NCBI GenBank assembly: GCA_964548955.1
Contig: CAZJTP010000001.1
Coordinates: forward strand, 74,285-134,298
DNA: 60,014 nucleotides
Source of the DNA: an uncultured Phycisphaeraceae bacterium
Lineage (GTDB): Bacteria; Planctomycetota; Phycisphaerae; UBA1845
Direction of reading: 5' to 3'
The notes beneath the pieces were generated by a model. It was not told the origin of the DNA, searched no databases, and saw nothing but the letters and a program-made list of their open reading frames with translations. Positions 34,101-59,360 of the stretch are shown piece by piece. Both the position numbers and the translations under genes were made by a program. Every line of letters starts with the position of its first letter. Within the stretch, counting starts at the first letter, position 1.

Positions 34101-36097
34101 ACGTTGCCATCATCGGTACAGGGTGTGCCCGCGGGATCAAAGCAGTTGTCGGCGGCCTCGTTGCAGTTGTCGGCGCACTCCGACCCGCCGACACATGGAT
34201 CGCCCGCGTGCACCGAACAGGTGCCGCCGGAACACGTGTCCGCACCGTTGCAGAACAAGCCGTCGTCACACGAGTCCGTGTTGTCGTAGGCCACGCAGCT
34301 GCCGCCGCCGTCGCACTCGTTGTCGGTGCAGACATTGCCGTCATCCGTGCAGACCGTACCCGCCGGGTCATAGCAGTTGTCGGCGGACTCGTTGCAGGAA
34401 TCAGCACACTCCGAGCCGCCGACACACGGATCGCCCGCGTGCACCGAGCAGTTGCCACCGGAACACGTGTCCGCACCGTTGCAGAACAATCCGTCGTCGC
34501 AGGAATCCGTGTTGTTCGTGTACTCGCAGAATCCGCCGACACACGCGTCATCGGTGCACAAGTTAACGTCGTCGCACTCCCAGTCGTACTCGCACTCCGG
34601 CTCCGGCTCGACAAGCGCCAACGAGTTGAGCACGTCGATGCGGCCGTAGCCGTAAGCGCGGTCAAAGCCGGCAGATCCCATATCGATGGCACCGTCGCGG
34701 ATGATCTGCCGCACCTCCGCCGGCGTCAGCGAGCCATCGGCACTCAGAATCAGTGCCGTCAAACCGGCCACGGTTGGGCAGGACATGCTCGTGCCGCTCA
34801 TGCCGGTGATTGAACCGCCGCCGGCGGCATTGCTGGCTGACCAGATGTTCGCACCGGGTGCGGTCACGTCGAGGTAATCGCTCTCGTTGCTGAAACAGCC
34901 TACCTCGTCGGTCTGGGGGGCGTAGTCCGTGCATATCCCCCAGTTCCAGTTCGTCGTGGGGTCCTCACACGTTGGGTAGTCGTTCTTCCAGGTCATGCCG
35001 ACGGCGATGACACTCGCACCGCAGGCCGGGGAGCTTAGCGCATTGCTGTAGTTTTCATTTCCCGATGCAGCAACAGCCACGACGCCGTTAGCGACGGCGT
35101 TATTCGCCGCAACCGCCCAGCTATGCGTACACGGGCCGCTGTAGTTGCCCGTTCCGATACTCATGCTGATCACATCCGCCTGTGCTCCGGATGCGGACTG
35201 GTCCGCACAGTAGTTGATGCCGGCGATGATGTCGCTGTCGTAACCGCCACCGGCGCTGTTCAGAACCTTGACCCCGATCAGTGTCGCCTCTGGTGCAACG
35301 CCCTGGAAAGGCATGGAACCCGTGCCACAGGGATCCCAACTCAGCCCGGTGCCGCCGGCCGCAATGCCGGAGCAGTGAGAGCCGTGGCCGTGATCGTCTT
35401 CCGGATTCGAATCGTCGTTGTAGAAATCGTAACCCTTGGATGTGTCGATCCGATCGGAATACATGATGTGATCCGAATCGATGCCGGTATCGACGATGCA
35501 AATACGTACGCCGGCGCCATCTGCCGAGTAGCCGGCACCGGTGATCTGGCTCTGCAAGCCACGAATCAACGGCATGCTGTCATGGAGCATCAGCACGTTC
35601 TGGTGGTATTCGTCCTCCTCAATCCGTACGACCCCCGGAAGCTCCTTTAACGCGTCAACCTGACTCTCCGGAATGTCGCGCAGGTTGAGCACGTTTGGAA
35701 GAACGGCGTTGTACTCGTACTTGACCACGCCTCCTCTTTGGGCCGCAAACGCCCGGACGTCCGCCCGTTCAATCGCGCTCGCTATGGTTCCTTCCTCCAT
35801 GTATACGAGCACACTTACGAGGCCCGGCTTGCCGCGTGGACCGCCAACCGGTACAGCTTCCAAATCCTCTTGGATCGGTGCCCCAACGATTTCTCCGGGC
35901 AAACGCGGTCCGACAGCCTCGTAATAAGCTTCGTCGATTTGCAGTTGCACCGTGTTGGTAGGCACGGTTCGCATACGTCCTAGTTTGGCCCCGTCAGCGC
36001 CACTCGCCGTCCAGACAACGCCTGCACCCATGATCACAACCGCGGTCATGGCCGGCACCCACATCCTTCTCCTCTTCGGTCGTAGAATCCCTCTCAT
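31130..36097 (-). CDS. giant secreted S8 subtilisin-like serine protease with Cys-rich repeats, two MAM-like domains and two C-terminal beta-sandwich-like modules
   Basis: Signal peptide present. Catalytic triad blocks ICIVDTGID, HGHGSHCSG and GMSGTSMSCP (aa ~200-440). Repeated DGLFCNG../C.DD.N.CTDD.C modules. Two copies of YPYTEGFESGWGDW...FWYHMYGS.MGTLNVEVS... (MAM-like). Tail modules are of the F..P.V..../R+..vt..sF type (H-type-lectin-like, low confidence). Confidence 0.9.
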   Translation of the reverse strand: MRGILRPKRRRMWVPAMTAVVIMGAGVVWTASGADGAKLGRMRTVPTNTVQLQIDEAYYEAVGPRLPGEIVGAPIQEDLEAVPVGGPRGKPGLVSVLVYMEEGTIASAIERADVRAFAAQRGGVVKYEYNAVLPNVLNLRDIPESQVDALKELPGVVRIEEDEYHQNVLMLHDSMPLIRGLQSQITGAGYSADGAGVRICIVDTGIDSDHIMYSDRIDTSKGYDFYNDDSNPEDDHGHGSHCSGIAAGGTGLSWDPCGTGSMPFQGVAPEATLIGVKVLNSAGGGYDSDIIAGINYCADQSASGAQADVISMSIGTGNYSGPCTHSWAVAANNAVANGVVAVAASGNENYSNALSSPACGASVIAVGMTWKNDYPTCEDPTTNWNWGICTDYAPQTDEVGCFSNESDYLDVTAPGANIWSASNAAGGGSITGMSGTSMSCPTVAGLTALILSADGSLTPAEVRQIIRDGAIDMGSAGFDRAYGYGRIDVLNSLALVEPEPECEYDWECDDVNLCTDDACVGGFCEYTNNTDSCDDGLFCNGADTCSGGNCSVHAGDPCVGGSECADSCNESADNCYDPAGTVCTDDGNVCTDNECDGGGSCVAYDNTDSCDDGLFCNGADTCSGGTCSVHAGDPCVGGSECADNCNEAADNCFDPAGTPCTDDGNVCTDDECDGAGTCGIPNTDPCDDGLFCTLTDNCSGGVCVGTGDPCEPGQYCNEDTDICEDVECIDNEDCDDNNACTVDICTDGVCYNECASTVSSYPYTEGFESGWGDWINASGDDMDWTRDSAGTPSSSTGPSSAHGGTYYVYTESSSPNYPDKTAILEGPCFDLANTSDAELSFWYHMYGSAMGTLNVEVSEDCVTWTNMWSLSGDQGNSWYEANVNLTSYSGTTIVIRFRGITGSSYRSDMAVDDISVTVTPAIPCDGDEDCDDGLFCTGVETCVDYLCQPGSDPCPGQACNEETDTCEEVECINDEDCDDDNACTVDTCTDGVCYNECASTVSSYPYTEGFESGWGDWVNASGDDFDWTRRSGSTPSSSTGPSGAHGGSYYVYTESSSPNYPNKTAILEGPCFDLTSASDAELTFWYHMYGSNMGTLNVEVSEDCVSWTNAWSLSGDQGNSWYEANVDLTSYSGTTIVIRFRGVTGSSYRSDMAVDDISVTATVGPMCDYDWECDDGVYCNGEETCVDHVCQDGTAVDCDDGVGCTDDSCNEGTDSCDNVANDANCDNGLYCDGAEWCDSVSDCQDGTAIDCYDGVDCTGDSCNEGTDSCDNIPNDAYCDNGVYCDGAETCDPVYDCQPGTAVDCDDGVGCTDDSCNEGTDSCDNIPNDAYCPDDGLFCNGTEFCDAVADCSSTGDPCEPGETCNEDTDACDPGGAGIMEAGTVTVGGTAVTVNLTSTYVNPVVVCSVQYYNNSTPVVARVTAVTSTSFDVYLQNPSGSGVSSETVSYLVVEEGTWTIDGVDIEAQKYLSTVTDENNSWVGESQSYGQSYTSPVVLGQVMSDNDPMWSVFWCQGSRRTNPPSASALKTGKEVAEDTDTTRADETVGFIVFEAGHGTIGGVEFEALVGADTVAGVTNSPPYTYTFDTSFTSAPTVAVTTMAGMDGGNGGWSYSYGANPTTSTTLNLACDEDQIGDSERNHTTEQVGYVVFESAVVFP
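32042..32524. repeat. three tandem ~162-bp coding repeats (54-aa Cys/Asp-rich units) inside the subtilase gene
   Basis: The unit DC.DGV.CT.DSCNEGTDSCDN..NDA.C.....C.G.E.CD...DC..GTA. is read three times in the translation (aa ~1192-1352). Confidence 0.8.
32609..34042. repeat. two tandem ~729-bp coding repeats (Cys-rich linker + MAM-like domain) inside the subtilase gene
   Basis: aa ~686-925 versus ~929-1163 align colinearly, with roughly 85-90% identical residues by eye (for example VSSYPYTEGFESGWGDW[IV]NASGDD[MF]DWTR). Confidence 0.85.
34046..34507. repeat. two tandem 231-bp coding repeats (77-aa Cys-rich unit) inside the subtilase gene
   Basis: DSCDDGLFCNGADTCSGG[NT]CSVHAGDPCVGGSECAD[SN]CNE[SA]ADNC[YF]DPAGT[VP]CTDDGNVCTD[ND]ECDG occurs twice (aa 531-607 and 608-684). 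Confidence 0.85.
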
Positions 36098-46409: not shown

Positions 46410-46883
46410 AGGTTTACGCTCGAAGCCATCAACATCGAACTACTAAGAAGCGACTACTGTACTAACATTTCACCGCCCGTCAAGGCCGCCTTTCTTCGTT
46501 TCGGATTGCCTGTGGAGGCGATCTTCTCGCGGCGGGTTTTGATGCCACACCTCAGCCTGAAGGGGCTGTCGGTTTAATCGAAACCGAACGCCGGAAAGAC
46601 CATAATCGATGGTCAGGGCTCTGTTTTCACTCTTGTCACCCGTTTGCCGCAGTCGCAATCGGACTAAATCGACAGCCCGAAGGGCTAAGCGACAACAGCC
46701 GTGGGCAAGTCCCGCTGCCTCATCCCCGCCCGACATCCCTTGTTTCCCAGCAGGTAAGTCGGGTCAGCAGACCCGACGCCAAACCAGTAAGTGCCGGCTT
46801 GCCCATGTCTTCAACGATCCCGCGTGGCCAAGCCCTGCCGGAGGCGACGGGCCATGGGTACAAGCCCGTCGTGTGGGTCGTGC

Positions 46884-46950
46884 TAGAAGCCCCCGAAGGG
46901 GGCGAAAGTCTATAGCCACGGGCGCAAGCCCGTGGTTTTAGGCGAAGCAC
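46884..46950. repeat. 67-bp two-hairpin REP element, copy 1
   Basis: tagaagcccccgaagggggcgaaagtctatagccacgggcgcaagcccgtggttttaggcgaagcac. Hairpins GCCCCC-gaa-GGGGGC and CCACGGGC-gcaa-GCCCGTGG. Identical copy at 47006..47072. Confidence 0.9.
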
Positions 46951-47005
46951 GGGTTCTTCAGGATCCAGACGCCCCGATCTGTTTCATTGACTGTGCAAGC
47001 ATCAA

Positions 47006-47072
47006 TAGAAGCCCCCGAAGGGGGCGAAAGTCTATAGCCACGGGCGCAAGCCCGTGGTTTTAGGCGAAGCAC
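47006..47072. repeat. 67-bp two-hairpin REP element, copy 2
   Basis: Base-for-base identical to 46884..46950, 122 bp downstream. Confidence 0.9.
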
Positions 47073-47141
47073 AGCCGATACAAGCCCTGGAGGGGCGACA
47101 GAACCGCTGTGACAACGAGATAGTCGTGCCGACCGTGTGTC

Positions 47142-47226
47142 GCCCCTCCGGGGCTCATTCGGGTCCGCCGCTCTTGTTCCACGGGCTTGCGCCCGTGGCT
47201 ACGCGCTTATGCCCCTTCCGGGGCAT
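47142..47226. repeat. degenerate inverted copy of the two-hairpin REP element
   Basis: CCACGGGC-ttgc-GCCCGTGG (the loop is the reverse complement of the direct copies) followed by GCCCC-ttcc-GGGGC. Further GCGCCAC..GTGGCGC hairpins lie at ~47300-47380. Confidence 0.7.
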
Positions 47227-47393
47227 TCCACCCGGGTGCTGAGTCTTCCAGGCGCGAGTGTCAACGAGCGGACACAGCGCGACGGTGAGCATCACCAACC
47301 GTGAGTCGTGTAGCGCCACCCCTCGCGGGTGGCGCCACAACCATACCATCGCGCCGTTGTGCGCCACGCACAAGGCGTGGCGCTACATTGCGT

Positions 47394-48728
47394 TCATGCA
47401 GCCGCTCGATGCGCAACGACGCGTCGACGGGCAAGCACCACCGTCCCCGCCGTTAGCACGAGCAAGGCCATCGTAACAAGGCCCCATTCGGAGACGGTGG
47501 GAATTGGACAGGCAGACCCGTGGCATACCGTCCCGTTTTCAAGGTAAACGCCGCCACTCTCCGAGCACAAATCTTGGGCGAGCTGGAGACACCCGACTGC
47601 TCCAAAACTGCCACAGCACGCTCCGCACTCGTCGGGAATGCCGTCGTTGTTGGTGTCGTCGCTCTCTCCGCAGCCGAGCACATCGCACGGGCCACCCGTG
47701 TCGCCGCATGAAATGTCGCATTCGTCGGGAATGCCGTTGCCGTTGCAGTCTTGCGCCAGGGCGACACGAAACCCGATGAAGGATTCGCCCTCGAACGGCG
47801 GAGGGCCGCCGTAGTAGCCGCGGAATGCCGCGTACAAGGGGTAGCCGTAGGGGTAGAACGACCCGCCGCGGAGACCACGAGACGCACCGTAAAACACGGC
47901 TTCGTTCCACTCCGAGACATTCCCTCCCTGGTCGAAACTGCCGTAAGGGCTGTCGGACGGCTTGGCGTCGTACGCGCCAACCTCGATCCTGTAGTACGGA
48001 GCGCCTATCACGTACCCATCCGGGGAGTAGTTCGCCGAGCCGTTCGTCATATCCGTACCCGCCGGAGCCTCCGCCGTCGGCGCCGCATCCGATTCCGTCG
48101 GGTAATCCCAGTAGTTGCCCGTCACACCATCGTTCTTGTGATACGCTGCCTTGTACCACTCGTCCTCGGATGGGACTACCCACGTGGCATCCGGCTCGCG
48201 AACAACCAGCAGTGTAGCTGTACCCGTCGCCCCGTTTAGGTAGTACGACCCATCCTCTGTCGTTGTCAGGTCCTGGGCACCCGTTGGCTGGCCGTTGTGT
48301 AGCCAGTTGCAGAACCGCGCAGCATCACCCCAGGAGACGTGGTTCACCGGGCGGTCGGCCCAGTCCGCACCCACTGAGTAGCTGTAATTGGGCGACGAGC
48401 CGGTGCGCTGAATGTTGCACCCGAACAACCCTTCAGAGGGGTTCGCCATCGAGGTGTTGTACAGCCCGTAGGTGTCCGTTGCTGCCACAGCATTGAGAAA
48501 CTCGGTGTACTGCCCGGCGGTCACCTCGTACTTGCCGATGTTGTAGACGTAGTCCACAGCCCCGCAGTCAGTACAGCAGGGACCGTGCCCACCCGCGCAT
48601 TCTCCGGACGACTCCCCGGTATTGCCCGGGTTGCCGACGGTTACCGTCTCGATGTCCACCGCTTGCGCTCCCGAAACGCAGGCCAACACCACCGCTGCCA
48701 CTGCCACTAATCTTGAAATGTTCCGCAT
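47394..48728 (-). CDS. formylglycine-generating-enzyme (FGE/SUMF1)-domain protein with Cys-rich NGIPDEC repeats and IPTL-CTERM-like tail
   Basis: Signal peptide MRNISRLVAVAAVVLACVSGAQA, with GGAGGA upstream of the ATG at 48728. FGE-like blocks YNIGKYEVTAGQYTEFLNAV, PVNHVSWGDAARFCNWL, RGLRGGSF and IGFRVA. Repeats NGNGIPDECD / NNDGIPDEC. C-terminus IPTVSEWGLVTMALLVLTAGTVVLARRR. The longest ORF reaches 49010. Confidence 0.8.
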   Translation of the reverse strand: MRNISRLVAVAAVVLACVSGAQAVDIETVTVGNPGNTGESSGECAGGHGPCCTDCGAVDYVYNIGKYEVTAGQYTEFLNAVAATDTYGLYNTSMANPSEGLFGCNIQRTGSSPNYSYSVGADWADRPVNHVSWGDAARFCNWLHNGQPTGAQDLTTTEDGSYYLNGATGTATLLVVREPDATWVVPSEDEWYKAAYHKNDGVTGNYWDYPTESDAAPTAEAPAGTDMTNGSANYSPDGYVIGAPYYRIEVGAYDAKPSDSPYGSFDQGGNVSEWNEAVFYGASRGLRGGSFYPYGYPLYAAFRGYYGGPPPFEGESFIGFRVALAQDCNGNGIPDECDISCGDTGGPCDVLGCGESDDTNNDGIPDECGACCGSFGAVGCLQLAQDLCSESGGVYLENGTVCHGSACPIPTVSEWGLVTMALLVLTAGTVVLARRRVVAHRAAA

Positions 48729-49040
48729 CGCACTATCCTCCTTACTGGGAAATGAAGAAGCCTTCGCTTCCAGGACGCCCGTCGCCTGTCCCGAGAGGGA
48801 CGGGCCGGGCATGGTCTCACGAACGATATCGGGGGTGGATACGCTTCCCCTTCGTCGCATCGCAGCGGCCGCGATTCTAACCGGATCCCGACCGCGAAAC
48901 CATATCCGGATTCCAACCCGCCTACCCGGGTGTGGCCATTCTCTGTGGCACATACGAATAATTCGTGTCTTTCCGTAGCGGCCGGCGTCCCCGCCGGCCG
49001 TCGTGCGCAATAACGCTTGCCGGGGAAACGGCCTGCGAGG

Positions 49041-49086
49041 ACGCAGGCCGCTACGGACGCAGGCCGCTACAGACGCAGGCCGCTAC
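49041..49086. repeat. three direct 14-bp repeats at 16-bp period (ACGCAGGCCGCTAC)
   Basis: Copies at 49041-49054, 49057-49070 and 49073-49086, in the 945-nt divergent spacer upstream of the cytochrome operon. Confidence 0.8.
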
Positions 49087-49673
49087 AATCTCAGGAGGGC
49101 GACATGACGACACAATGCCACAAAATATGGCAACGCCGCCTACCCTGCGGGCGGCAGCGGGGGCAATTGCCCCGTCGTCAGGTAGGTTCTCAGGTCATCG
49201 GCATTCGTTTCGGTCGGGCTGTGAGCCCGCAGACGCAGCGGGCGTCAGTTGAGCGAGCCGAGTGCCGTGGCCATGGCTGCGCTGATCGGCCGGCGGATCA
49301 ACCGGACCTGGGATGCGTTCCGGCGTTCCCGCCCGCTCCAAAGGACCGCCTAATCGCTATCTTTTCGGAATGCACCCCCGACTGCTCGCCAGGGTTATCG
49401 GGGCTTGAGGGAGCGTTTGTAACCTGTTATGATATCACAGCTTACGTCAATCATCGGACGAGTCACGGGGGGTGAAGGGGTTAACGCACCGGCATGGTCT
49501 GCGTAGGCAGCCAATAACGTGACTACGGGGCGTGTGTGGAGGGCCGACGTTGTGTCGTCGCCCGCCCGCTCCGGGTCGGAGCCATGAGAAATGGTGGCCG
49601 GGCCGTGCTAGCATTGGTACCGGTCGCGCAATTGCTACGACCAGGGACGATCGAGTTACGGAAGGAGTATGCC

Positions 49674-50285
49674 ATGAGGCGCGCGAGGATAATCCCGCTT
49701 TCAGCCCTGCTTGTGGCTTTCAGCGCCGCTGCGTTCGCAGGGGGGATCGTCGGGACCGGGCACGATTTCTCGAGCGAGGCGTGGAGCGATGGCCGGATCT
49801 GCCTGCCGTGTCATGTGCCGCACAACGCACAAGTCGACGAGGACGGCAGCAGCATGGTCCTTTGGAACCATAGTGTTACCAACGAGACATTCATGATGTA
49901 TACCGGCTTCGCGGTCGAGCGGATCGATCGGGACCAGGATGAGCAGCCGGGCGGGGGCAGTAAGCTGTGCCTGAGCTGTCACGATGGCGTGACAGCCGTC
50001 GATGCCTTCGGTGGTGGTCTGGAATCCCCGTCGGTGTTCGCAGAGACCTCGCTTGGCACGGACCTGCGGGACGACCACCCGATCGGAGTGCAGTATCCGC
50101 CGGATGGATTCGCCGGTTTCAAGCCGAGGGCCAACCTGCCGCCCGTGAAGCTGATTACCTGGGGCGGCAAGACCGATCGAGTCGAGTGCACCTCGTGCCA
50201 TGAGCCACACTCGGACGACTTCGGCATGTTTCTCCGCATGGACAACACCGGCAGTGCGCTGTGCCTGCAGTGCCACGACAAGTAG
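49674..50285 (+). CDS. tetrahaem c-type cytochrome (doubled-CXXCH type), periplasmic
   Basis: GGAAGGAG lies upstream of the ATG at 49674. Signal peptide MRRARIIPLSALLVAFSAAAFAGG. Haem motifs CLPCH, CLSCH, CTSCH and CLQCH. HDFS...C..CH.PH and LWNH patterns. Confidence 0.9.
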   Translation: MRRARIIPLSALLVAFSAAAFAGGIVGTGHDFSSEAWSDGRICLPCHVPHNAQVDEDGSSMVLWNHSVTNETFMMYTGFAVERIDRDQDEQPGGGSKLCLSCHDGVTAVDAFGGGLESPSVFAETSLGTDLRDDHPIGVQYPPDGFAGFKPRANLPPVKLITWGGKTDRVECTSCHEPHSDDFGMFLRMDNTGSALCLQCHDK

Positions 50286-50356
50286 CACCGTTTGAGGCCG
50301 CGCGACGGTCTGACTGCGACGATTCGACTGACGAACGATAGACGGATGGGGGGGCG

Positions 50357-50989
50357 ATGAGATTTCAAATGGGGCGACTATCGGCGGTATTCGTGGCGGT
50401 GCTTGCCGGCGCGGCAATCTCACAGGACGCCTCGAGGATCGTGAATACGCCGCATAATCTGAACACCGTTGACGTCTGGGGCGTGGTCATCCCGCAGAAC
50501 CGCATCTGCCTGCCATGCCACACGCCGCACAACGCACAGAGGGAGGACAGGGGCGAGAGCCTGGTTCTGTGGAACCATGCGATCACCGAGCAAACGTTCG
50601 AGATGTACACCACGTCGGCGGGCCATAAGGGCGGCCAACCGGAGGGATACAGCAAACTCTGCCTGAGCTGCCACGACGGAGTGACAGCCATCGACAGCTT
50701 CGGTGGCAACAACGGTTTCTTCAATAATGTGAGGATCGCCCCGGATCGTCCCAGCAACCTGGGCACCGACCTGCGAAACGACCACCCGATCGGGGTCCAG
50801 TATCCCCCGCCGGACTTGACAGGATACCACGACAAAAGCACATTCATGGGTGTGAAGGTGGTGACGGTCAACGGCGTCGACCGGGTGGAATGTACATCCT
50901 GCCACGACCCCCACAATAATTCGCTCGGAATGTTCCTTCGACAGACGCTAAGCGGGAGCGCGCTTTGCCTCGAGTGTCATGACGAGTAG
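50357..50989 (+). CDS. tetrahaem c-type cytochrome, paralogue of the preceding gene
   Basis: Signal peptide present. Haem motifs CLPCH, CLSCH, CTSCH and CLECH, colinear with the 49674 protein (RICLPCH.PHNAQ, KLCLSCHDGVTA.D, LGTDLR.DHPIGVQYPP, VECTSCH.PH, ALCL.CHD). Confidence 0.9.
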   Translation: MRFQMGRLSAVFVAVLAGAAISQDASRIVNTPHNLNTVDVWGVVIPQNRICLPCHTPHNAQREDRGESLVLWNHAITEQTFEMYTTSAGHKGGQPEGYSKLCLSCHDGVTAIDSFGGNNGFFNNVRIAPDRPSNLGTDLRNDHPIGVQYPPPDLTGYHDKSTFMGVKVVTVNGVDRVECTSCHDPHNNSLGMFLRQTLSGSALCLECHDE

Positions 50990-51171
50990 CTCCGCCCGGA
51001 GAGAATGCGAGGGGCAGAAACGCCGATAACTCCCCGTAGGCGGGCCGGACTGGGCAGGGCGTAGTTGGCGCGTCGCCGGACGGCTGGAAGGCGGAACCGT
51101 CGCCACGACCAGGGAGGTGTCACCCCGTGACAGGAAGCCAGCGATATCGGTATTTCCTCCGAAGTTGGCCA

Positions 51172-52392
51172 ATGGCAACGCGGCTAAGACGAGCAAACGC
51201 CACCGGGGTCATGGCCGTTGCCGTGGCCCTGACTGCGGGATGCAACACCCCGGGCAGGACGGAGGCCCCGCTGCTGGTATTCCCGTCACCGCCGGCCGAG
51301 CCAAGAATACAATTCCTGACCTGGGCGAGTGGTGCCCAGGAAGTTGAAGCCCCAAAGAGCGGATTAGCCAAGTTCGTACTCGGCGATGAACCCGAGAACC
51401 GTTTGGCGATAGACAAGCCCTACGGCCTGGCCGCGCGCGACGGAGTCGTGTACGTGTGCGACACGAAGATGCCAGGCTTGTGCCGTCTGGATTTCAAGAA
51501 CCAAACCTACACCGTGTTCGGCGTCCGCGGACCGGGGCGGCTCCGTAAGCCGATCAACCTCGTCATCGACCCGGCCGGATACAAGTTCGTCGCCGACTCG
51601 CTGCGCAAGCAGATCGTGGTCTTTGGTCCCGACGACGGGTACGTGACGGCCTTCGATGTACCCAAACCGAGCCACCCGGTTGACATCGCACTCTCGGGCA
51701 ACGAGATCTATGTGCTCGACAACGACGATACTTGCCAGATCGTCGTAATGGATCGCCAGACGGGCGAGGTGCTCCACACTCTTTGCGGACCGGGTGAGGA
51801 GCCGGGGCAGTTCAGAATACCCAACAGCCTGTGCTTCGGGCCCGAGGGGCACCTGTATGTCAGCGATACCTTGAACTGGCGCATCCAGAAGCTGACCCGT
51901 GACGGTGAGCTGGTCTGGGTCAAAGGGACGCCGGGCCATCGCCTGGGGCAGTTTGGACGTCCCCGGGGTCTTCGGATCGGACCGGAGGGCATCGTCTACG
52001 TTGCCGACGCAGCCACCGAAATCATCCAGATGTACAACCCGGACGGGCAGATACTCATGCACTTCGGCGGTCCGGGCTCGGTGCCCGGCGCCCTCGTGCT
52101 CCCCGCTACCGTCGCCATCGATGCGACTTCCATCCCGTACTTCAAGCAGTACATCCACGAAGATTTCGACGTCGAGTATCTGCTGTTCGTCAGCAGTCAA
52201 TACGGTCAACACCTCATCAGCGTCTACGCCTTCGGCTCCTTCCCCGAAGGCTATCAATTATCGGAGGCGCAGATAGCCTCACTGCCGCCGGTGGATGAGG
52301 AGGAGGCTGAAGAATCGACAGGCACACCGGCGGGCGCTGACAATACACCAGACCAGGCGGGCGAAGATCAGCGATCAAAGCGGCAGGAATGA
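51172..52392 (+). CDS. NHL-repeat beta-propeller lipoprotein
   Basis: Lipoprotein signal MATRLRRANATGVMAVAVALTAGC. NHL-type repeats, for example GQFRIPNSLCFGPEGHLYVSDTLNWRIQKL and GQFGRPRGLRIGPEGIVYVADAATEIIQMY. A GTG at 51127 is an alternative start. Confidence 0.85.
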   Translation: MATRLRRANATGVMAVAVALTAGCNTPGRTEAPLLVFPSPPAEPRIQFLTWASGAQEVEAPKSGLAKFVLGDEPENRLAIDKPYGLAARDGVVYVCDTKMPGLCRLDFKNQTYTVFGVRGPGRLRKPINLVIDPAGYKFVADSLRKQIVVFGPDDGYVTAFDVPKPSHPVDIALSGNEIYVLDNDDTCQIVVMDRQTGEVLHTLCGPGEEPGQFRIPNSLCFGPEGHLYVSDTLNWRIQKLTRDGELVWVKGTPGHRLGQFGRPRGLRIGPEGIVYVADAATEIIQMYNPDGQILMHFGGPGSVPGALVLPATVAIDATSIPYFKQYIHEDFDVEYLLFVSSQYGQHLISVYAFGSFPEGYQLSEAQIASLPPVDEEEAEESTGTPAGADNTPDQAGEDQRSKRQE

Positions 52393-52395
52393 GTC

Positions 52396-53076
52396 ATGGA
52401 TGAGCGTCGGTCCTGCAAACTCACCGCGCAGTGCTCACCAAGCCGGCAGGAAGTATGCCGCACCCGCCCACACCGAGCCGCCCGGCGGGCGGTGATTGTC
52501 TCGACTACAACGGCGGCAGTTCTGATTGCAGCGGCCGCATGCTCGCACGAGGCCGGACATCGGGTGCTCGTGTTCTTCTTCGACGGCGTGCCCCCTCTCG
52601 AAACCGGTGTTACCGATCTTGCGGTCGAGACGGCGGGAGATGCATTGGCGACTACGGCGATCGAACCGCCGCAGCGCGTAAACGCCGCAAAGAGGTTCTA
52701 CAACCATCCGGCTTACAAGCAAAATCGCTGCCCCGAGTGCCACAATGTTGACGGTGGAACGTTGATCAAGACGGCACGCGAGGGACTCTGCCAATCCTGC
52801 CATCCCGAGACGCCGGCGAAGAAGAAGTTCGTCCACGGACCCGTGGCGCTCAACGGCTGCCTGGCGTGTCATCTCTATCACAAGTCGCTGCATCCAAAGG
52901 TACTGGTGGCGGACGCCCAGACGCTCTGCTTCCACTGCCATGAAGAGGGCGAACTGAGGACCGATGAGCACCACGCAACCATCAAGGAGGAGCGTTGCAT
53001 CGACTGCCACGACGCGCACGGCGGTGACGATCGATTCTTCCTTATTCCAAAGGCGGACACGGTTGAGTCTTCATGA
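52396..53076 (+). CDS. pentahaem c-type cytochrome, lipoprotein-type signal
   Basis: Signal AAVLIAAAACS. Haem motifs CPECH, CQSCH, CLACH, CFHCH and CIDCH. Starts 3 nt after the NHL gene stop. Confidence 0.9.
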   Translation: MDERRSCKLTAQCSPSRQEVCRTRPHRAARRAVIVSTTTAAVLIAAAACSHEAGHRVLVFFFDGVPPLETGVTDLAVETAGDALATTAIEPPQRVNAAKRFYNHPAYKQNRCPECHNVDGGTLIKTAREGLCQSCHPETPAKKKFVHGPVALNGCLACHLYHKSLHPKVLVADAQTLCFHCHEEGELRTDEHHATIKEERCIDCHDAHGGDDRFFLIPKADTVESS

Positions 53077-53122
53077 GACGTATTGATCGTTGAACGGAAG
53101 CAACGAACATGCTCGTCGTGCA

Positions 53123-55171
53123 ATGTGGCACGCCGGAGGCGGTCGGCGCGCGCGCCGTTGGATCGTGTGCCTCGCCGCCGGTGCAACCGGCGCGGCATTC
53201 CTGGCCGGCTGCCGCACGCAGCCCAGGGTGTCCGACGGCTTCGAGGAGCTGATGTTCACCGACTTCAAAGCGCATGCGGACTTCGTCGTCAGGCGGCAGG
53301 ACAGAGAGCAGGAGTCGAAAACGGAAACCAGTAAGATCCGCTCCAAGGAAACCATCTTCGAGGAAAGTCTGAGCCTGGAGACTAATGGCTATGTGTACCA
53401 CCCGAACCTGCTCGAGTTCACGCTCGGCGGAGTGTTCGGGCTGGTGCAGGAGGATTTCGAGGATATCGTCGATGGGCGGAAACGAAACGCGAGCAACAGC
53501 GGCGATCTGCTCGAGTTCGACATGGATGCGCGGATCTTTAAGAAGAAGACTTACCCCATGACAATGTTCGCCCACCGCCGCCGCGGACTTGTCCCTCGCC
53601 CTTTCTTGCCCAGTCTGGAGACGACCACGGCCAACTACGGCTTCACCTGGCAGTACGTCAGCAAGAAAATGCCCAGCAGCCTCCAGTTCAGCTATACCGA
53701 TGTTAAGCTGAGTCCGCTGCTGGTGAGCGGGTACGCCGAGGACAAAGGACGACAAAAGAACACGGTGCTGAGATTCGAGACCGGTTACAACTTCAACGAT
53801 CACCACGTGCTGTCGCTTGTCTACGAGCACGAATCGGTTGACGAAGAGCCCTTCGAGGTCGATTATGACGCCGACGAGGTCACGCTCACGCATCGGCTGG
53901 AGTTCGGCACCGAGCACCAACACGATCTGCGATCGGAGCTCAACGTCCTGGACCAGCGCGGTACAATCGACATTGATCGGGTCCGCTGGCGCGAGGACCT
54001 GCGGCTGAAACACTCCGACACGTTGCAGTCTCTATTCCAGTGGGAAGTGTTGGACCGGACCCGCGGAAACCGATTGGGCAACGTGCCGGACGTGGAGGAG
54101 CGTTCGACTTTGCTCTCCGGATCGTTGCGGCACCAGCTTTACCAGAGCCTGACTTCGCAGCTCCGCATGTTCGTACGGAAACAGAAATTCGAGCCTGACC
54201 TGGACATCACCCGATGGGGCGGTCAGATCGACTTCAGCTACCGCAAGACGAATCGTTGGGGTGTGCTGAATGCCAACTACGGTTTCCAGGCCGAGCGTAA
54301 CGATCACCGCGGTGCGTCGCAGACGGCCGAGATCGTCGACGAATCGCAGACTTTTCAAGACCCGGACCCGATCACACTTGGCAACCGAAACGTCCTTGTC
54401 GGATCCATCTTCATCACTGCCGAGGATCGCGTGACCATTTACCAGCGCGGGCGGGACTTTCTGGTGCGGCCCCTCGGCAACCACGTCGAGATTGAGCGCG
54501 TTCCGACCGGATACATCGCAGACGGCGAGACGGTTCTTATCGACTACCTGTTCAGCATCGGCGGGACATTCAAACTAGACACCATCGCCCACAACTTCGG
54601 CATCCGACAGGACTTCGAGTGCGGTTTGAAGCCGTATTACCGGTTCGAGTGGCAGGATCAGTCCATCACACCTGCGAGTGCTTCCGGAGCCATTGCGGAG
54701 GATATCACGGGGCACATCACCGGCGTGGAGTACCGGGATGCCTCGCTGAGACTCTTCGCAGAATACGAAGATCATGATTCAACTATCACTCCGTTCATCA
54801 GTACACGTTTGGGGGCATCCTGCACGCATCGGTTCAAGACCGGTGCGGAGACAAGCCTTCAAACCCGCTGGACCGACACGAGCCACGGCCCACCAACGGA
54901 GCGGGACGTCAGGCTGTTCACGCTGGAAGGTCGACACCGACACCCCATCACACCCAAGCTGATGATCGAGGGTTCAGTGCTCTATCGCAACGGCGAGGAC
55001 TCGCTCTCCCGTGACACCGAGGGAGTGGACGTATCACTCTCTTTGGAATGGTCCGTCCGGCAAACGGACGTCAAGATGAGTTTCGAGTACGGCGATTTTG
55101 AGGACGAATTCACGCGAAATGATTCCACCGCACTATTCATTCACGTAAGGCGAGAGATTTGGCAGCCATGA
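53123..55171 (+). CDS. large beta-rich envelope protein, putative outer-membrane beta-barrel (lipoprotein-type signal)
   Basis: Signal MWHAGGGRRARRWIVCLAAGATGAAFLAGC. About 650 further residues have no hydrophobic helix. They show many short alternating hydrophobic/polar stretches rich in Y/F/W/R/D/G (for example LRLFAEYEDHDS, VSLSLEWSVRQTDVKMSFEYGDF), with an aromatic residue near the C-terminus. A TTG at 53090 is an alternative start. Confidence 0.6.
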   Translation: MWHAGGGRRARRWIVCLAAGATGAAFLAGCRTQPRVSDGFEELMFTDFKAHADFVVRRQDREQESKTETSKIRSKETIFEESLSLETNGYVYHPNLLEFTLGGVFGLVQEDFEDIVDGRKRNASNSGDLLEFDMDARIFKKKTYPMTMFAHRRRGLVPRPFLPSLETTTANYGFTWQYVSKKMPSSLQFSYTDVKLSPLLVSGYAEDKGRQKNTVLRFETGYNFNDHHVLSLVYEHESVDEEPFEVDYDADEVTLTHRLEFGTEHQHDLRSELNVLDQRGTIDIDRVRWREDLRLKHSDTLQSLFQWEVLDRTRGNRLGNVPDVEERSTLLSGSLRHQLYQSLTSQLRMFVRKQKFEPDLDITRWGGQIDFSYRKTNRWGVLNANYGFQAERNDHRGASQTAEIVDESQTFQDPDPITLGNRNVLVGSIFITAEDRVTIYQRGRDFLVRPLGNHVEIERVPTGYIADGETVLIDYLFSIGGTFKLDTIAHNFGIRQDFECGLKPYYRFEWQDQSITPASASGAIAEDITGHITGVEYRDASLRLFAEYEDHDSTITPFISTRLGASCTHRFKTGAETSLQTRWTDTSHGPPTERDVRLFTLEGRHRHPITPKLMIEGSVLYRNGEDSLSRDTEGVDVSLSLEWSVRQTDVKMSFEYGDFEDEFTRNDSTALFIHVRREIWQP

Positions 55172-56220
55172 TCAGCTTCCGTCTTATCGCACTAGTCGTG
55201 TCCATGCTTGTTGCGGCGGGTTGCCATCGCCCGCTAAGACCGATTTTTGACGAGCCCACACCGCCGGTAACATGGCCGGCCGATCCCGCTCGGGCAAGGA
55301 TCCGGTACGTGGGGCAGCTCACTTCGTCGGCCGACGTCAAGCCGGCGCGAAAGCCGTTCCAGGGAGTCGTGGACTTCTTCGTGGGGGCGAAGACCCCGGA
55401 GCAGCTCTACGGCCCACGCTCGGTCGTTACCACCGGCGGCGGAAGTAGAGTTTGGATCGCGGATCCCGGCGGGCGCTGCCTGCACCTGTTTGATCTGCAG
55501 GATCGGTCTTACAAGAAAATTGTCCGCGCGGGCAACGAGCGTTTCTTGAGCCCGTCGGATTTGTGTGCCGGGCCCGAGGAAACGATTTTCATCTGTGATT
55601 CGGAGAGCATTGCGATTCACCAGTTGTCGGGACGTACCGGGGAACTTCGCCGCTCGCTACGCCTGACGGATGACGTGAAGCGACCCGTGGCGCTGCACTA
55701 TGACGCCAACAGGAAGGAGCTGTTCATCGTTGACGTGGCCGCCCACAACATCAAAGTCCTCAGCCTTGACGGGCGGCTTATCCGTATCGTCGGTCGACGG
55801 GGGAATCGCATTGGTGAGTTTAACTATCCGTGCGACATCGCCGATGACGGTACGGTCATCTGGATTGCCGACACCGGCAACCAGCGGGTCTGTGGACTGA
55901 CGCATTCCGGTGATCCGGTCGTCACCTTCGGCGAAGCGGGTGACGCCCCGGGGCGGATGGCCCTGCCCAAGGGAATCGCGACCGACAGCGATGGAAACGT
56001 GTACGTCGTAGACGCGCGGTTCGAGAACGTACAGGTTTTCGATCGCACGGGCAATCTGCTGCTCGTCATCGGCGAGGAGGGGATCGGTCCGGGGCAGTTC
56101 TGGTTGCCGGGGGGGATCTTCATTGATCCAAACGACAGAATCTGGATCTGCGACACGTACAATCGGCGGGTCCAGGCCTTCGAACGCATCAAAGACACTC
56201 GCCTCGGAGACCAGCCATGA
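55168..56220 (+). CDS. NHL-repeat beta-propeller lipoprotein (second copy)
   Basis: ATGA overlap with the upstream stop. Signal MISFRLIALVVSMLVAAGC. Repeats GEFNYPCDIADDGTVIWIADTGNQRV, GRMALPKGIATDSDGNVYVVDARFENVQVF and GQFWLPGGIFIDPNDRIWICDTYNRRVQAF. Confidence 0.85.
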   Translation: MISFRLIALVVSMLVAAGCHRPLRPIFDEPTPPVTWPADPARARIRYVGQLTSSADVKPARKPFQGVVDFFVGAKTPEQLYGPRSVVTTGGGSRVWIADPGGRCLHLFDLQDRSYKKIVRAGNERFLSPSDLCAGPEETIFICDSESIAIHQLSGRTGELRRSLRLTDDVKRPVALHYDANRKELFIVDVAAHNIKVLSLDGRLIRIVGRRGNRIGEFNYPCDIADDGTVIWIADTGNQRVCGLTHSGDPVVTFGEAGDAPGRMALPKGIATDSDGNVYVVDARFENVQVFDRTGNLLLVIGEEGIGPGQFWLPGGIFIDPNDRIWICDTYNRRVQAFERIKDTRLGDQP

Positions 56221-57935
56221 ATGCCACGTCAAATCATAGGTGCTTTGGGTTGCTCGTGGCGGCGGCTGTATGCTGTACCCAGATTGTGCGGGCTCAGGAA
56301 CGTGTCGTCGAGACGGTGCACAATCTTTCGACCAGCGGCTCGGGCGAGATTCGCGCGGAGTCAGAAGAGCGGGTGTGCGTCTTCTGCCATGCGCCACACA
56401 GCACGGCCGGGTCTATACCGTTGTGGAATCGTGAGTTTCCGGTCGCGAATTACCGCATCTATCAGTCGTCGACGTTCGACGCCGCTCCGGGGCAGCCCAC
56501 CGGTGCGAGCAAACTTTGCCTGAGTTGTCATGACGGGACAATCGCACTCGGTCGGGTTCTGAGCCGCGCCGATCGGATCCGCATGGTCGGCGGAGACTTC
56601 ATGCCGGCCGGTCTCTCGAACCTCGGGACCGATCTGTCCGACGATCACCCGATCAGCTTCTACTACACCGCAGGTCTGGCGGCGTCGGATCGCCAGCTTA
56701 AAAGCCCCAACACGCTGCCGGACAAGATCAAGCTGGATCCGTCAGGGCAACTCCAGTGCACCGCCTGCCACGACCCGCATCACAACAGGTACCGGATGTT
56801 CCTGACAATGCGCGATGAGTTCGGCGCCCTTTGCACGGTATGTCACGACATGTACGGTTGGTCATCCGGTTCACACAGCACGGCCGGTGAAGCGGTGTCC
56901 GGCGCGGCAATGGGTGACTGGCCGTTCGGCACGGTGATCCAAAACGCCTGCCGCAGTTGCCACCGCAGCCATGCCGCGGGCGGCCGCGAACGCCTGCTCA
57001 TCTTTGAGAAGGAGGAGGACAACTGTCTAAGCTGTCACGATGGAAGCGTCGCGCGGTTTGACATCGGCGCCGAAATCGACAAGCCCAGCGCTCACGACCC
57101 GCGCCTGTACGTTGGCATTCACGACCCCGCTGAGACGCTTGCGGGCTCGCAGCCGCATGTCGAGTGCGCCGATTGTCACAACCCTCACGCTGCTGCCGCG
57201 CCGACCCAGCAGGACTATAATATCGCCATCGGCGCGACAATGCTGAGGGTACCGGGCGTGACCTCGGGCGGCGGTTACGTGCAGGAGGCGCAGTTTGAGT
57301 ATGAGGTCTGCTATCGCTGCCACGCCGACGCGCCGGTTCCGGTCTCGCACCGCATTTCCCGCCAGGCGGATCAGCCGAACCTGCGCCTGAAGTTCAGCTC
57401 GACCAATCCCAGCTTCCACCCGGTGGTAACAGCCGCAGCAAGCACGGACACGGTGAGTCTGGACCCGACCATTCCCAGCGGGACGCTGATCCGCTGCACG
57501 GACTGCCACAATAACGACACCGGATCCCGGGCGGGCGGCAGCGGGCCCGACGGGCCGCACGGCTCCGTGTACGACTTCCTTCTCGAACACAACTACACCG
57601 TGCACGATAACACGCCCGAATCGGCTTACGACTACGCGCTTTGCTACAAGTGTCACAGGCGCGTCAGTATATTGAACAACGAGAGCTTCCCAAGGCACGC
57701 CGAGCACCTGCGAGACCGGGACGCACCCTGCAGCGCCTGCCACGATCCGCATGGAATCAGTACCACCGTAGGCGGCGGCTCCGACCACACGCATCTGATC
57801 AACTTCGACACCACGATCGTACGCCCGCTGACCGGGACTACGCGGACGGCGTTTCGAGACCTCGGACGCTTCGTCGGGAGCTGCACGTTGACGTGCCACG
57901 GCCACGACCACAACGAACAGGAATACGGCTATTGA
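56217..57935 (+). CDS. dodecahaem c-type cytochrome (11 CXXCH + 1 CX3CH)
   Basis: ATGA overlap with the upstream stop and a signal peptide. Haem motifs in order: CVFCH, CLSCH, CTACH, CTVCH, CRSCH, CLSCH, CADCH, CYRCH, CTDCH, CYKCH, CSACH and CTLTCH. The first ~190 aa are colinear with the two tetrahaem proteins. Confidence 0.9.
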   Translation: MNATSNHRCFGLLVAAAVCCTQIVRAQERVVETVHNLSTSGSGEIRAESEERVCVFCHAPHSTAGSIPLWNREFPVANYRIYQSSTFDAAPGQPTGASKLCLSCHDGTIALGRVLSRADRIRMVGGDFMPAGLSNLGTDLSDDHPISFYYTAGLAASDRQLKSPNTLPDKIKLDPSGQLQCTACHDPHHNRYRMFLTMRDEFGALCTVCHDMYGWSSGSHSTAGEAVSGAAMGDWPFGTVIQNACRSCHRSHAAGGRERLLIFEKEEDNCLSCHDGSVARFDIGAEIDKPSAHDPRLYVGIHDPAETLAGSQPHVECADCHNPHAAAAPTQQDYNIAIGATMLRVPGVTSGGGYVQEAQFEYEVCYRCHADAPVPVSHRISRQADQPNLRLKFSSTNPSFHPVVTAAASTDTVSLDPTIPSGTLIRCTDCHNNDTGSRAGGSGPDGPHGSVYDFLLEHNYTVHDNTPESAYDYALCYKCHRRVSILNNESFPRHAEHLRDRDAPCSACHDPHGISTTVGGGSDHTHLINFDTTIVRPLTGTTRTAFRDLGRFVGSCTLTCHGHDHNEQEYGY

Positions 57936-58085
57936 GTCGCTAGACCAGGCTCTGTTTTTGTGTAGCGAGCAGCGGGCTCAAAGCCCGCGCGGAATCTCCG
58001 AGGTAAGCCTTTCTTCCAAGAGCCCAAAACCGCTACGTGAAATTGAAAAACGCTCTGGTCAATCTGACCTCAGTGTCCGTGGCAA

Positions 58086-58800
58086 TCAATCTGCGTAAGG
58101 CGGGCGGGTAGCACGGTGTGGGGCCGCAGGTGGCAGGCCGTGGTTGCTGGCGTGTGGCACGGCCTGGCGAAGCCAGACTGTAGCCACACGAACCTCACGC
58201 GATGACAGCCAGACTTCCCGCCAACGCGGCTGTCGGCTCCACATCTCCGATAGCAGATAGGCGTCGGTCCGGTTCGATTTGACGATCACGCCTTGGGCAA
58301 CCTCAGGGCTCCAACCATCCGATCGGGCAAGACCCTGGTGGTAGGATCCTGCGAAGACGTTTACGCCAGCAAGTTTGTCTCGTCGCGTCGGTGAATCCTG
58401 GCTACACACGTGCCACCATCGCGGTTTTTACTGGTGGTCGGGCGGTCTGGGGTATGCGGGCTGGAACGGCCAGAACGGGTTTCACGGCCAACCAGTGGCG
58501 GAAAGCCATCAGAATATGTTGAAGCCGGAACCGTTGGGGGGGGGGACGGTGAAGATGATACGTCGCTTGCCAACGGTTCGGCCTACAAACGTACTTCCGC
58601 TGCACTACTTGCGGCTGTCACGGTTGCTCTCCGGGTATTGACTCCGACAAGCCCGGGCTTCATGAAACGATTACGAGCGAGGAACTTTGTTGTACGGACG
58701 GCATGAGATCGCTGAATCTGGGGCGTGCCACGTGGATCAGGCGGGCTGCCAGGACCACCAAATCAACCGTTTCTCCGGACCGGATGACCCTAGTTCACCC
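58086..58800 (-). pseudogene. degenerate IS3-family-like transposase (rve integrase) remnant, multiple frameshifts
   Basis: Minus-strand pieces in different frames: LRTTKFLARNRFMKPGLVGVNTRR (compare the IS3 OrfB block LR..G..V...RV.RLM+..GL.G..RR), VCRPNRWQA (compare the PN..W..D block) and C-terminal REVRVATVWLRQAVPHASNHGLPPA (compare EV..A..EW+.W.N..R.HS.LGY.PP). A G10 homopolymer lies at ~58536-58545. Confidence 0.35.
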
Positions 58801-59033
58801 GCTGCCAGACCCGGCTTGGCGAGGCCGGAATTGGGGTTTACTTATGCAGAGTCCGGGGTATACTACCGGCGGTTGGTTCGTCGAACGAGGCACGTACGTG
58901 ACATTGGCTATCCAAGTCCGGATCGAATTGCTAAGATCGTCCTCCTACCTTCGAGGCTGGAATGTCAGCCACTTTCACTCACGACCCTGAAAGTAAAACC
59001 GTGGGTCGGGCAAGCCATCGACAGGAGATTGCG

Positions 59034-59360
59034 ATGGGCAAAAAGTTGTATGTTGGGAACCTCAGCTATGATGTCAGTAGTTCAGACTTGGAAACGCTAC
59101 TGTCGGCACACGGAACGGTCCTGAGCGCGGAAGTCATCACTGACCGGTCGACCGGCCAGAGCAAAGGGTTCGGATTCGTGGAGATGGACTCCGACGCGGA
59201 CGCCCAGGCGGCCATCGCGGCGTTGGACGGCCAGCCACACGGCAGTCGAACGCTGACGGTGAACGAAGCCAAGCCCCGCGCCCCGCGCACCGGCGGCGGT
59301 CGCGGTGGTTACGGCGGCGGACGCGGCGGAGGAGGAGGAGGTCGCCGAGACCGCTATTGA
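59034..59360 (+). CDS. RRM-type RNA-binding protein with Gly/Arg-rich tail
   Basis: RNP-2 LYVGNL and RNP-1 KGFGFVEM. Tail GGGRGGYGGGRGGGGGGRRDRY. AGGAG lies upstream of the ATG at 59034. Confidence 0.92.
   Translation: MGKKLYVGNLSYDVSSSDLETLLSAHGTVLSAEVITDRSTGQSKGFGFVEMDSDADAQAAIAALDGQPHGSRTLTVNEAKPRAPRTGGGRGGYGGGRGGGGGGRRDRY

Follow-up and report, generated by a model that had tools for sequence, protein, structure and literature searches.

A probable OmcE-type cytochrome nanowire module in an uncultured member of the Phycisphaerae

What purpose is served by a tightly packed run of cytochrome, beta-propeller and barrel genes in a planctomycete? The question is raised by a 60,014-nucleotide (nt) stretch of contig CAZJTP010000001.1 (GenBank assembly GCA_964548955.1) from an uncultured Phycisphaeraceae bacterium, which was analyzed over its whole length and is referred to here as the window, and in which seven genes of the same strand, numbered g1 to g7, occupy positions 49674 to 57935. 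A preliminary description of the window had proposed a candidate trans-envelope electron conduit unlike any characterized one, acquired perhaps horizontally by a Planctomycetota-like host. The closest named homologues are all from Phycisphaerae or Planctomycetota, in keeping with that host. We conclude, with a probability of roughly two in three, that this cluster represents, in Phycisphaerae, a widespread and syntenic OmcE-type cytochrome nanowire module.

Re-examination of the gene calls reproduced all seven open reading frames (ORFs) on the + strand, each with an ATG start and one terminal stop. The spacers between successive genes from g1 to g7 measure 71, 182, 3, 46, −4, and −4 nt, the last two being the ATGA overlaps at 55168 (g5/g6) and 56217 (g6/g7). 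The preliminary description was exact in its ORF coordinates, its overlaps and its 3-nt gap, and its tally of 24 CXXCH motifs and one CX3CH motif was identical on recount: four CXXCH in g1, four in g2, five in g4, and 11 plus CTLTCH in g7. The protein families it had named were also recovered in a Pfam scan, with NHL matching g3 (E value 2e-15) and g6 (8e-18), and with Paired_CXXCH_1 matches reported for all five cytochromes (6e-12 to 5e-24). As read from the sequence, g1, g2, and g7 carry ordinary signal peptides, and lipoboxes are found in g3 (LTAGC), g4 (AAAAC), g5 (FLAGC), and g6 (VAAGC).

The two leading genes carry the identification. They encode tetrahaem cytochromes c of 203 amino acids (aa) with a Sec signal peptide (g1, 49674-50285, + strand) and of 210 aa (g2, 50357-50989, + strand), and they are paralogous, as had been supposed (50% identity over the full length, E value 6e-65). 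In a search of PDB sequences, each aligned end-to-end with 7tfs_A, the subunit of the OmcE filament of Geobacter sulfurreducens (E values of 1.4e-21 for g1 and 9e-24 for g2), and both also aligned with 9yuq_N from the OmcE nanowire bundle of Desulfuromonas soudanensis (7e-17 for g1). Compared directly with G. sulfurreducens OmcE, g1 and g2 share 33% identity with it over their full length (E value 1e-29). A ligand alignment was assembled from both solved OmcE subunits (PDB 7TFS and 9YUQ), g1, g2, the N-terminus of g7, and Phycisphaerales orthologues. Throughout this alignment, 8 of 8 Cys and 8 of 8 His are invariant, and the haem ligands of the OmcE subunits from G. sulfurreducens and D. soudanensis are thus all kept in the window. 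Four of the invariant His lie in CXXCH motifs, and the others fall in T-x-H-[DN]-L, CH-x-P-H, D-D-H-P, and a second CH-x-P-H. The chains of OmcE, g1, and g2 all stop 2 to 3 residues past haem motif 4. In OmcE filaments, the interfacial haem takes its His ligands from two adjacent subunits (PMC12954529, PMC9473688). This OmcE-like module, common to g1, g2, and g7, had been overlooked in the preliminary description. The 211-aa product of the OmcE-like gene in the Phycisphaerales genome CP070827 is 48% identical to g2 and 39% identical to g1. We assign g2 as the orthologue of the single OmcE-like gene in other Phycisphaerae and g1 as an extra, more divergent paralogue.

The last gene, g7 (56217-57935, + strand), encodes a dodecahaem cytochrome of 572 aa whose residues ~13-211 constitute an OmcE-like tetrahaem module; residues 14-211 matched 7tfs_A with an E value of 2.9e-28 (9e-39 with a profile) and also matched 9yuq_N. 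Past this module, the protein continues in a C-terminal extension with eight haems (seven CXXCH and the CX3CH). Because the position that the next subunit would take is filled by g7's own eight-haem extension, g7 is a natural candidate for the membrane-proximal end of a filament. Petersen et al. state that the OmcE operons they examined encode no candidate for a tip or an initiator (bioRxiv 10.1101/2025.10.22.684050). All 12 haem motifs are invariant in 31 Phycisphaerae homologues, and the preliminary description, which had made conservation of the CXXCH sites a point on which its reading would stand or fall, is borne out there. Across phyla, g7 is the most conserved component of the cluster, at 43 to 50% identity.

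The center of the cluster is occupied by g5 (53123-55171, + strand), a 682-aa lipoprotein for which an AlphaFold2 (AF2) model was built from a 52-sequence alignment. The model has a predicted local distance difference test (pLDDT) score of 89.5 and a predicted TM-score (pTM) of 0.78, and consists of ~28 long antiparallel strands, the sole helix being the signal peptide. Foldseek searches of the PDB returned outer-membrane barrels for all top matches (Cir, LptD, and TonB-dependent receptors), and the highest TM-score, 0.44/0.45, was that of MtrB in the Mtr complex (6r2q_B). The protein is thus confidently modelled as a large outer-membrane beta-barrel; the ~690-aa barrel-like protein of the preliminary description is recognized in it, and the soluble or non-barrel outcome that would have spoken against that description did not occur. 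No Pfam or NCBIfam family matched g5, MtrB_PioB (TIGR03509) included, and a profile of the barrel found no match among PDB sequences; a few members of the g5 family match Porin_4 or BBP2_2. Residues G29 and C30 are near-invariant in the family. More than 170 close homologues were collected, all from Planctomycetota, and a profile search of 1.84 billion representatives found relatives in 2397 representative clusters. Restriction of the family to this phylum, suggested by the named distant representatives (all Planctomycetota), was considered and then overturned by the 80-locus survey of synteny described below. As a separate observation, residues ~398-480 (window positions 54314-54562) form an insert of ~80 conserved residues with short strands between strands 17 and 18, with the motif DExxTFxDPxPI ... 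GxDYxV ... EIERxxxGxIxxGxxVLxDY. No other segment of the barrel family is as well conserved from phylum to phylum, and it may serve as a plug or as a domain for cytochrome docking.

Immediately upstream of the barrel gene lies g4 (52396-53076, + strand), a pentahaem lipoprotein of 226 aa that resembles a half-module of MtrA or DmsE. It matched the MtrA chain 6r2q_A with an E value of 1e-8 and the DmsE family model TIGR03508 with an E value of 3e-12 and 46 bits, below the curated cut-off of 192; the score of g7 against the same model was 50 bits. In three metagenomic proteins of 887 to 940 aa (P0267, P0329, and P0343), a g4-like pentahaem lipoprotein domain is fused N-terminally to a g5-type barrel through a Pro/Ala-rich linker, and g4 aligns with the N-terminus of P0267 with an E value of 6e-19. 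These fusions argue for a physical partnership of g4 and g5. The N-termini of outer-membrane barrels normally face the periplasm, and for this reason we propose that g4 would be the periplasm-side partner of g5.

Both remaining genes encode NHL beta-propeller lipoproteins, propeller A (g3, 51172-52392, + strand, 406 aa) and propeller B (g6, 55168-56220, + strand, 350 aa), and each is tied to its position. The gene for g3 always comes after the OmcE-like gene, and g3 is 65% identical to its positional orthologue in CP070827, versus only 27% to g6-type propellers. A match to the six-bladed propeller family DUF5128 (E value 5.5e-11) was found for g6. Over its full length, g6 is 31% identical to the NHL lipoprotein encoded in the omcE cluster of G. 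sulfurreducens (E value 4e-45), and g3 is 26% identical to that protein (E value 6e-24).

These components reproduce a published list. A minimal omcE cluster comprises OmcE together with a pair of beta-propeller lipoproteins, a pair of multihaem cytochromes, and one large beta-barrel (Petersen et al., bioRxiv 10.1101/2025.10.22.684050), and the parts list of the omcE cluster in Desulfuromonadia equals that of the window, except that OmcE is duplicated in the latter. The following elements of an OmcE-type cluster are present: the tetrahaem subunit, an adjoining large barrel (the g5 gene sits two genes downstream of g2), two propeller lipoproteins, and two further multihaem cytochromes. The statement that no characterized conduit resembles the locus therefore does not hold, as its tetrahaems are OmcE homologues and its parts list is that of the published omcE cluster; in effect, a system with this synteny has been described before. 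Differences are also apparent. The gene order is unlike that of the Geobacter cluster, the window's multihaem proteins are a lipoprotein of five haems and a 12-haem protein that includes an OmcE-like module, and the glycosylation gene block that belongs to the omcE cluster of Desulfuromonadia is absent. OmcE homologues have been reported from five phyla, none of which is Planctomycetota (bioRxiv 10.1101/2025.10.22.684050). From comparison of the genes, the window cluster is the same kind of machine as the omcE cluster, with a barrel family that is unrelated or unrecognizably diverged and with a different cytochrome architecture.

The distribution of the module was followed by scanning an alignment of g7 against one genome per GTDB species. 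Of the more than 600 stretches that matched, 584 could be confirmed, and the 80 best were annotated with purpose-built hidden Markov models (HMMs); most incomplete loci are short contigs. A full-length g5-type barrel is encoded in 62 of these 80 loci, a four-haem OmcE-like protein in 50, and at least two NHL proteins in 52, and the OmcE-like gene, the barrel, at least two NHL genes, and g7 occur together in 45. Nearly all 80 retain the 12 haem motifs of g7 and an NHL gene immediately 5' of it. Among these best relatives, the module spans at least 14 phylum- or class-level lineages. Outside Planctomycetota, full-length g7 homologues (43 to 51% identity) come from Nitrospirota, the Alpha-, Beta-, and Gammaproteobacteria, Desulfobacterota, Bacteroidota, Ignavibacteriota, Calditrichota, Verrucomicrobiota, Myxococcota, Acidobacteriota, Zixibacteria, and Eisenbacteria, and carriers include the isolate Desulforhopalus sp. 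IMCC35007 (Desulfobacterota) and a metagenome-assembled genome (MAG) of Ignavibacterium album. Within Phycisphaerae, the corresponding identity is 61 to 83%, and gene order is retained throughout the class; the complete Phycisphaerales genome CP070827 has the order OmcE-like (single), NHL, five-haem, barrel, NHL, 12-haem. Across phyla, identity to the other window proteins is 32 to 43% for the OmcE-like proteins (g1, g2), 31 to 38% for the NHL proteins (g3, g6; g3 itself 32 to 38%), 26 to 34% for g4, and 19 to 28% for the barrel g5. In Ignavibacteriota, Calditrichota, and some Bacteroidota, the NHL and 12-haem genes precede OmcE, NHL, five-haem, and barrel (survey loci L032, L033, L045, L049, L062, L063, L066, and L074), and from these swapped orders we deduce that the module consists of two conserved blocks, one of NHL-B and the 12-haem protein and the other of OmcE, NHL-A, the five-haem lipoprotein, and the barrel. 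Gammaproteobacterial versions have no pentahaem gene, and in some of them OmcE is duplicated as it is in the window (L058).

Two further kinds of cytochrome were seen near the module in the survey. Modules of Desulfobacterota and Gammaproteobacteria are accompanied by proteins of 789 to 1021 aa with 18 to 24 haems, built of repeated fragments that match the OmcE profile (L055 1-2667, L059 1-2634, L067 12475-14841, L071 17033-19432, L072 11869-14334, and L076 14902-17964), and these may be covalently concatenated OmcE-like units. In many Planctomycetota and one Acidobacteriota locus, an extra cytochrome of ~440 to 480 aa with 12 to 14 haems is encoded just 5' of the OmcE-like gene (L001 4166-6675, which is CP070827, L008, L012, L015-L018, L046, L060, and L087), preceded in CP070827 by a sigma-54 two-component regulator pair. 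The window has neither this cytochrome nor the regulator pair.

Taken as an OmcE-type module, the locus would work as follows. Electrons from the periplasm would pass to the MtrA-like g4, which would be seated in or at the periplasmic opening of g5, the barrel of ~28 strands, and then to g7, a 12-haem rod that would occupy or cross the barrel. The N-terminal OmcE-like module of g7 would then lie outside, where a polymer of g2 and/or g1 could be based on it or dock with it, and this polymer could deliver electrons to acceptors that are insoluble or far from the cell, among them metal oxides, humics, and partner cells; flow in the reverse direction is also possible. The NHL propellers may be scaffolds or assembly factors specific to their positions, with g3 serving the OmcE/barrel block and g6 serving g7. 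A bolder extension, which we advance tentatively and hold to be more doubtful than probable, is that g7 is the missing base or tip of OmcE-type nanowires, an OmcE module joined covalently to an eight-haem rod that would sit in the barrel and nucleate or anchor the polymer of free OmcE subunits, with the barrel as usher or anchor of the cytochrome fiber, and that a six-gene module of OmcE, NHL-A, five-haem lipoprotein, barrel, NHL-B, and 12-haem protein unifies the OmcE clusters with the Uet and DFE clusters considered below as one machine of at least 14 phylum- or class-level lineages, Planctomycetota included.

Several points weigh against reading the locus as an OmcE-type nanowire module. 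Although role and position are alike, comparison of g5 with the barrel encoded in the G. sulfurreducens cluster (752 aa) gave no hit by BLASTP, E values of 0.1 to 0.6 by hmmsearch, and a probability of 4.4% by hhalign. The 9- and 8-CXXCH cytochromes of that cluster resemble g4 and g7 weakly, and orthology of the whole machine with the characterized Geobacter system is for this reason partial. The AF2 model of g7, computed from a 31-sequence alignment and without haems, has a pLDDT of 33.6. The window holds no other multihaem ORF and encodes neither an inner-membrane nor a periplasmic partner. OmcE-like tetrahaems are common, and not all of them need polymerize (bioRxiv 10.1101/2025.10.22.684050); the physiological role of cytochrome filaments is also disputed (PMC11077965). 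Finally, in Planctomycetota the cluster is known from its genes alone.

The direction of electron flow separates the OmcE-type reading as set out above from its strongest alternative, an oxidative module for electron uptake, with Fe(II) minerals, metallic iron, cathodes, or partner cells as donors; such a role has been proposed for the Uet and DFE clusters. Uet (undecahaem electron transfer) is known from Ca. Tenderia electrophaga and from some Gallionella (bioRxiv 10.1101/2022.05.06.490989; PMC10734462). By its description, it comprises a tetrahaem cytochrome (UetA), a ~28-strand barrel (UetC), two NHL proteins (UetH and UetI), and an 11-CXXCH cytochrome (UetJ) encoded directly 3' of an NHL gene, just as g7 follows g6, and this closeness of parts lists favors uptake. 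The window lacks the peptidyl-prolyl isomerase (PPIase) UetB, the c7-type trihaems UetD/E/G, and the cupredoxin UetF, as judged by Pfam and a check of the gaps, and it has a pentahaem lipoprotein that Uet does not. In Desulfovibrio ferrophilus, multihaem cytochromes are co-transcribed with NHL propellers in the clusters DFE_0448-0451 and DFE_0461-0465 (PMC5815863; PMC9769857), which we likewise compare by description and in which, unlike the window, no porin has been recognized; DFE variants called by FeGenie have already been reported in Phycisphaerae MAGs. Judged by parts list, the window cluster probably corresponds to the Uet and DFE clusters. Homologues of g7 in the lithotroph-like Acidiferrobacterales, Sedimenticola, Thioalkalispiraceae, and Burkholderiales also argue for uptake. 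Direction is not readable from sequence, however, and the likeness to Uet and DFE rests on descriptions; moreover, the module also occurs in typical reducers (Desulfobacterota and Ignavibacteriota), and surveyed Phycisphaerae mostly carry markers of extracellular electron transfer (EET) of the reductive type, with oxidative ones in 3 of 139 operational taxonomic units. We regard uptake as unlikely, if a serious contender, and since it concerns direction alone, it is compatible with the architecture favored here.

A second alternative dispenses with the filament and is essentially that of the preliminary description: a porin-cytochrome conduit built on the logic of MtrCAB (Shewanella) and Pcc/Ext (Geobacter), with g4 as periplasmic cytochrome, g5 as porin, g7 as surface cytochrome, and g1 and g2 as monomeric shuttles at the surface or in the periplasm. 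The likeness is real, in that a periplasm-side multihaem protein, a large barrel, and an outer multihaem protein recur; g4 resembles half of MtrA and is found fused to the barrel, MtrB is the best structural match of g5 by TM-score, and g7 matches the Pfam domain Mtrc-MtrF_II-IV (E value 2e-10). On these grounds, the proposal of a candidate trans-envelope conduit survives. It also counts for this reading that polymerization of g1 and g2 is predicted solely from conservation of their ligands. These same proteins speak against it, as they align end-to-end with a protein known solely as a filament subunit and retain all eight His, including the set that ligates the inter-subunit haem of OmcE (PMC12954529). 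Furthermore, the cluster falls short of the MtrB_PioB, OmcA/MtrC, DmsE, and GSU2203 family models; in the NCBIfam scan, g4 and g7 gave no significant match to OmcA/MtrC (TIGR03507). The haem counts of 5 and 12, the OmcE-like subunits, and the two propeller lipoproteins also set the window apart from MtrCAB and Pcc, and the conserved propellers have no counterpart in Mtr or Pcc. A plain conduit thus seems rather improbable to us. Also comparable with the window, by description, are the syntenic clusters EET1-EET4 of peat Acidobacteriota and Verrucomicrobiota, which combine porin, scaffold, and cytochrome and include OmcE-like cytochromes of 8 to 13 haems (bioRxiv 10.64898/2026.05.27.727921). 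They belong to different phyla from the window's, and the full module was found in Acidobacteriota and Verrucomicrobiota loci of our survey (L087, L042, and L065).

The flanks of the cluster bear on a third alternative, that it is a recently acquired island bracketed by repetitive extragenic palindromic (REP) elements and an IS3 remnant. The REP-rich spacer placed to its left in the preliminary description exists, as REP-like palindromic repeats at 46851-47390, but it lies between rplM and an FGE-sulfatase gene, one gene away from the cluster. It comprises an exact 67-nt repeat unit (46884-46950 and 47006-47072), an inverted copy that is 80% complementary (47179-47228), and further hairpins (47083-47155 and 47309-47387). 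Only a 16-nt unit (GACGCAGGCCGCTAC+1), present in three tandem copies at 49040-49095, and an adjoining 30-nt inverted repeat (48972-49001/49028-49057) are found in the spacer right before g1; situated at the divergent FGE-sulfatase/cytochrome junction, they could be a regulatory site. On the right, no transposase domain was detected in ORFs of at least 80 aa across 57936-59124, and the ORFs at 58086-59124 have no Pfam match, which leaves the supposed IS3-like remnant without support. Guanine-plus-cytosine (GC) content stays at 0.59 to 0.63 from one end of the window to the other and shows no step at the cluster. The neighbors are housekeeping genes, among others: mutS, an Nramp transporter gene, hisS, rpsI, rplM, and the FGE-sulfatase/IPTL-CTERM protein gene upstream, and a gene for an RRM protein downstream. 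The spacing from g7 to the RRM gene is identical in a second sample (L002), and the Phycisphaerae g7 orthologues form a coherent group. Given the flat GC content, the housekeeping flanks, the missing transposase, and the same spacing in L002, recent acquisition is not supported. The upstream repeats count in favor of an island, which we consider quite improbable; gene order kept throughout Phycisphaerae likewise tells against the horizontal acquisition first suggested. The patchy, multi-phylum distribution implies that the module was transferred horizontally at some earlier time, and its ancient spread among phyla is likely on that account.

Weakest is the notion of a periplasmic or outer-membrane redox enzyme, such as an N- or S-oxyanion reductase with catalytic NHL propellers, which we rejected as very improbable indeed for want of a catalytic subunit: NHL/SGL-type propellers do include enzymes (lactonases, PAL) and NrfB and NrfH models gave weak matches, but the Nrf-type matches are all far under their cut-offs, there is no CXXCK catalytic haem motif and no molybdopterin, Fe-S (iron-sulfur), or copper subunit, the best matches are an extracellular filament protein and MtrA, and reductase genes were never associated with the synteny in the surveyed loci.

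Three other features of the window may be recorded. The 1.1-kb spacer between g7 and the RRM gene (57936-59033) gave no Pfam, Rfam, or tRNA match, and its length is the one kept in the contig from the other sample, L002. The gene divergent from the cluster (47394-49010, − strand) encodes a secreted protein of 538 aa in which an FGE-sulfatase (SUMF1-like) domain is combined with a Cys-rich region and an IPTL-CTERM sorting motif. Farther upstream (31130-36097, − strand), a secreted subtilase (Peptidase_S8) of 1654 aa carries two MAM domains and an H-type lectin-like region, a mix of domains unusual for a bacterium.

Overall, the locus represents a new host, Planctomycetota, for a known OmcE/porin-scaffold-cytochrome kind of system rather than an unprecedented conduit. 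What makes it worth following is a distinct and very widespread barrel family, together with g7 as a candidate filament base. The survey suggests that the machinery is distributed far more widely than the five phyla listed for OmcE, with the fused OmcE-plus-eight-haem protein as its best-conserved part, and this fusion offers a concrete candidate for the outer-membrane anchoring or initiation of cytochrome nanowires, a question that the field calls open. Phycisphaerae, usually considered fermentative degraders of polysaccharides, abound in sediments, groundwater, and anoxic waters. If the OmcE-type reading is true, uncultured members of the class could respire with, or exchange electrons with, solid phases by means of OmcE-type fibers.

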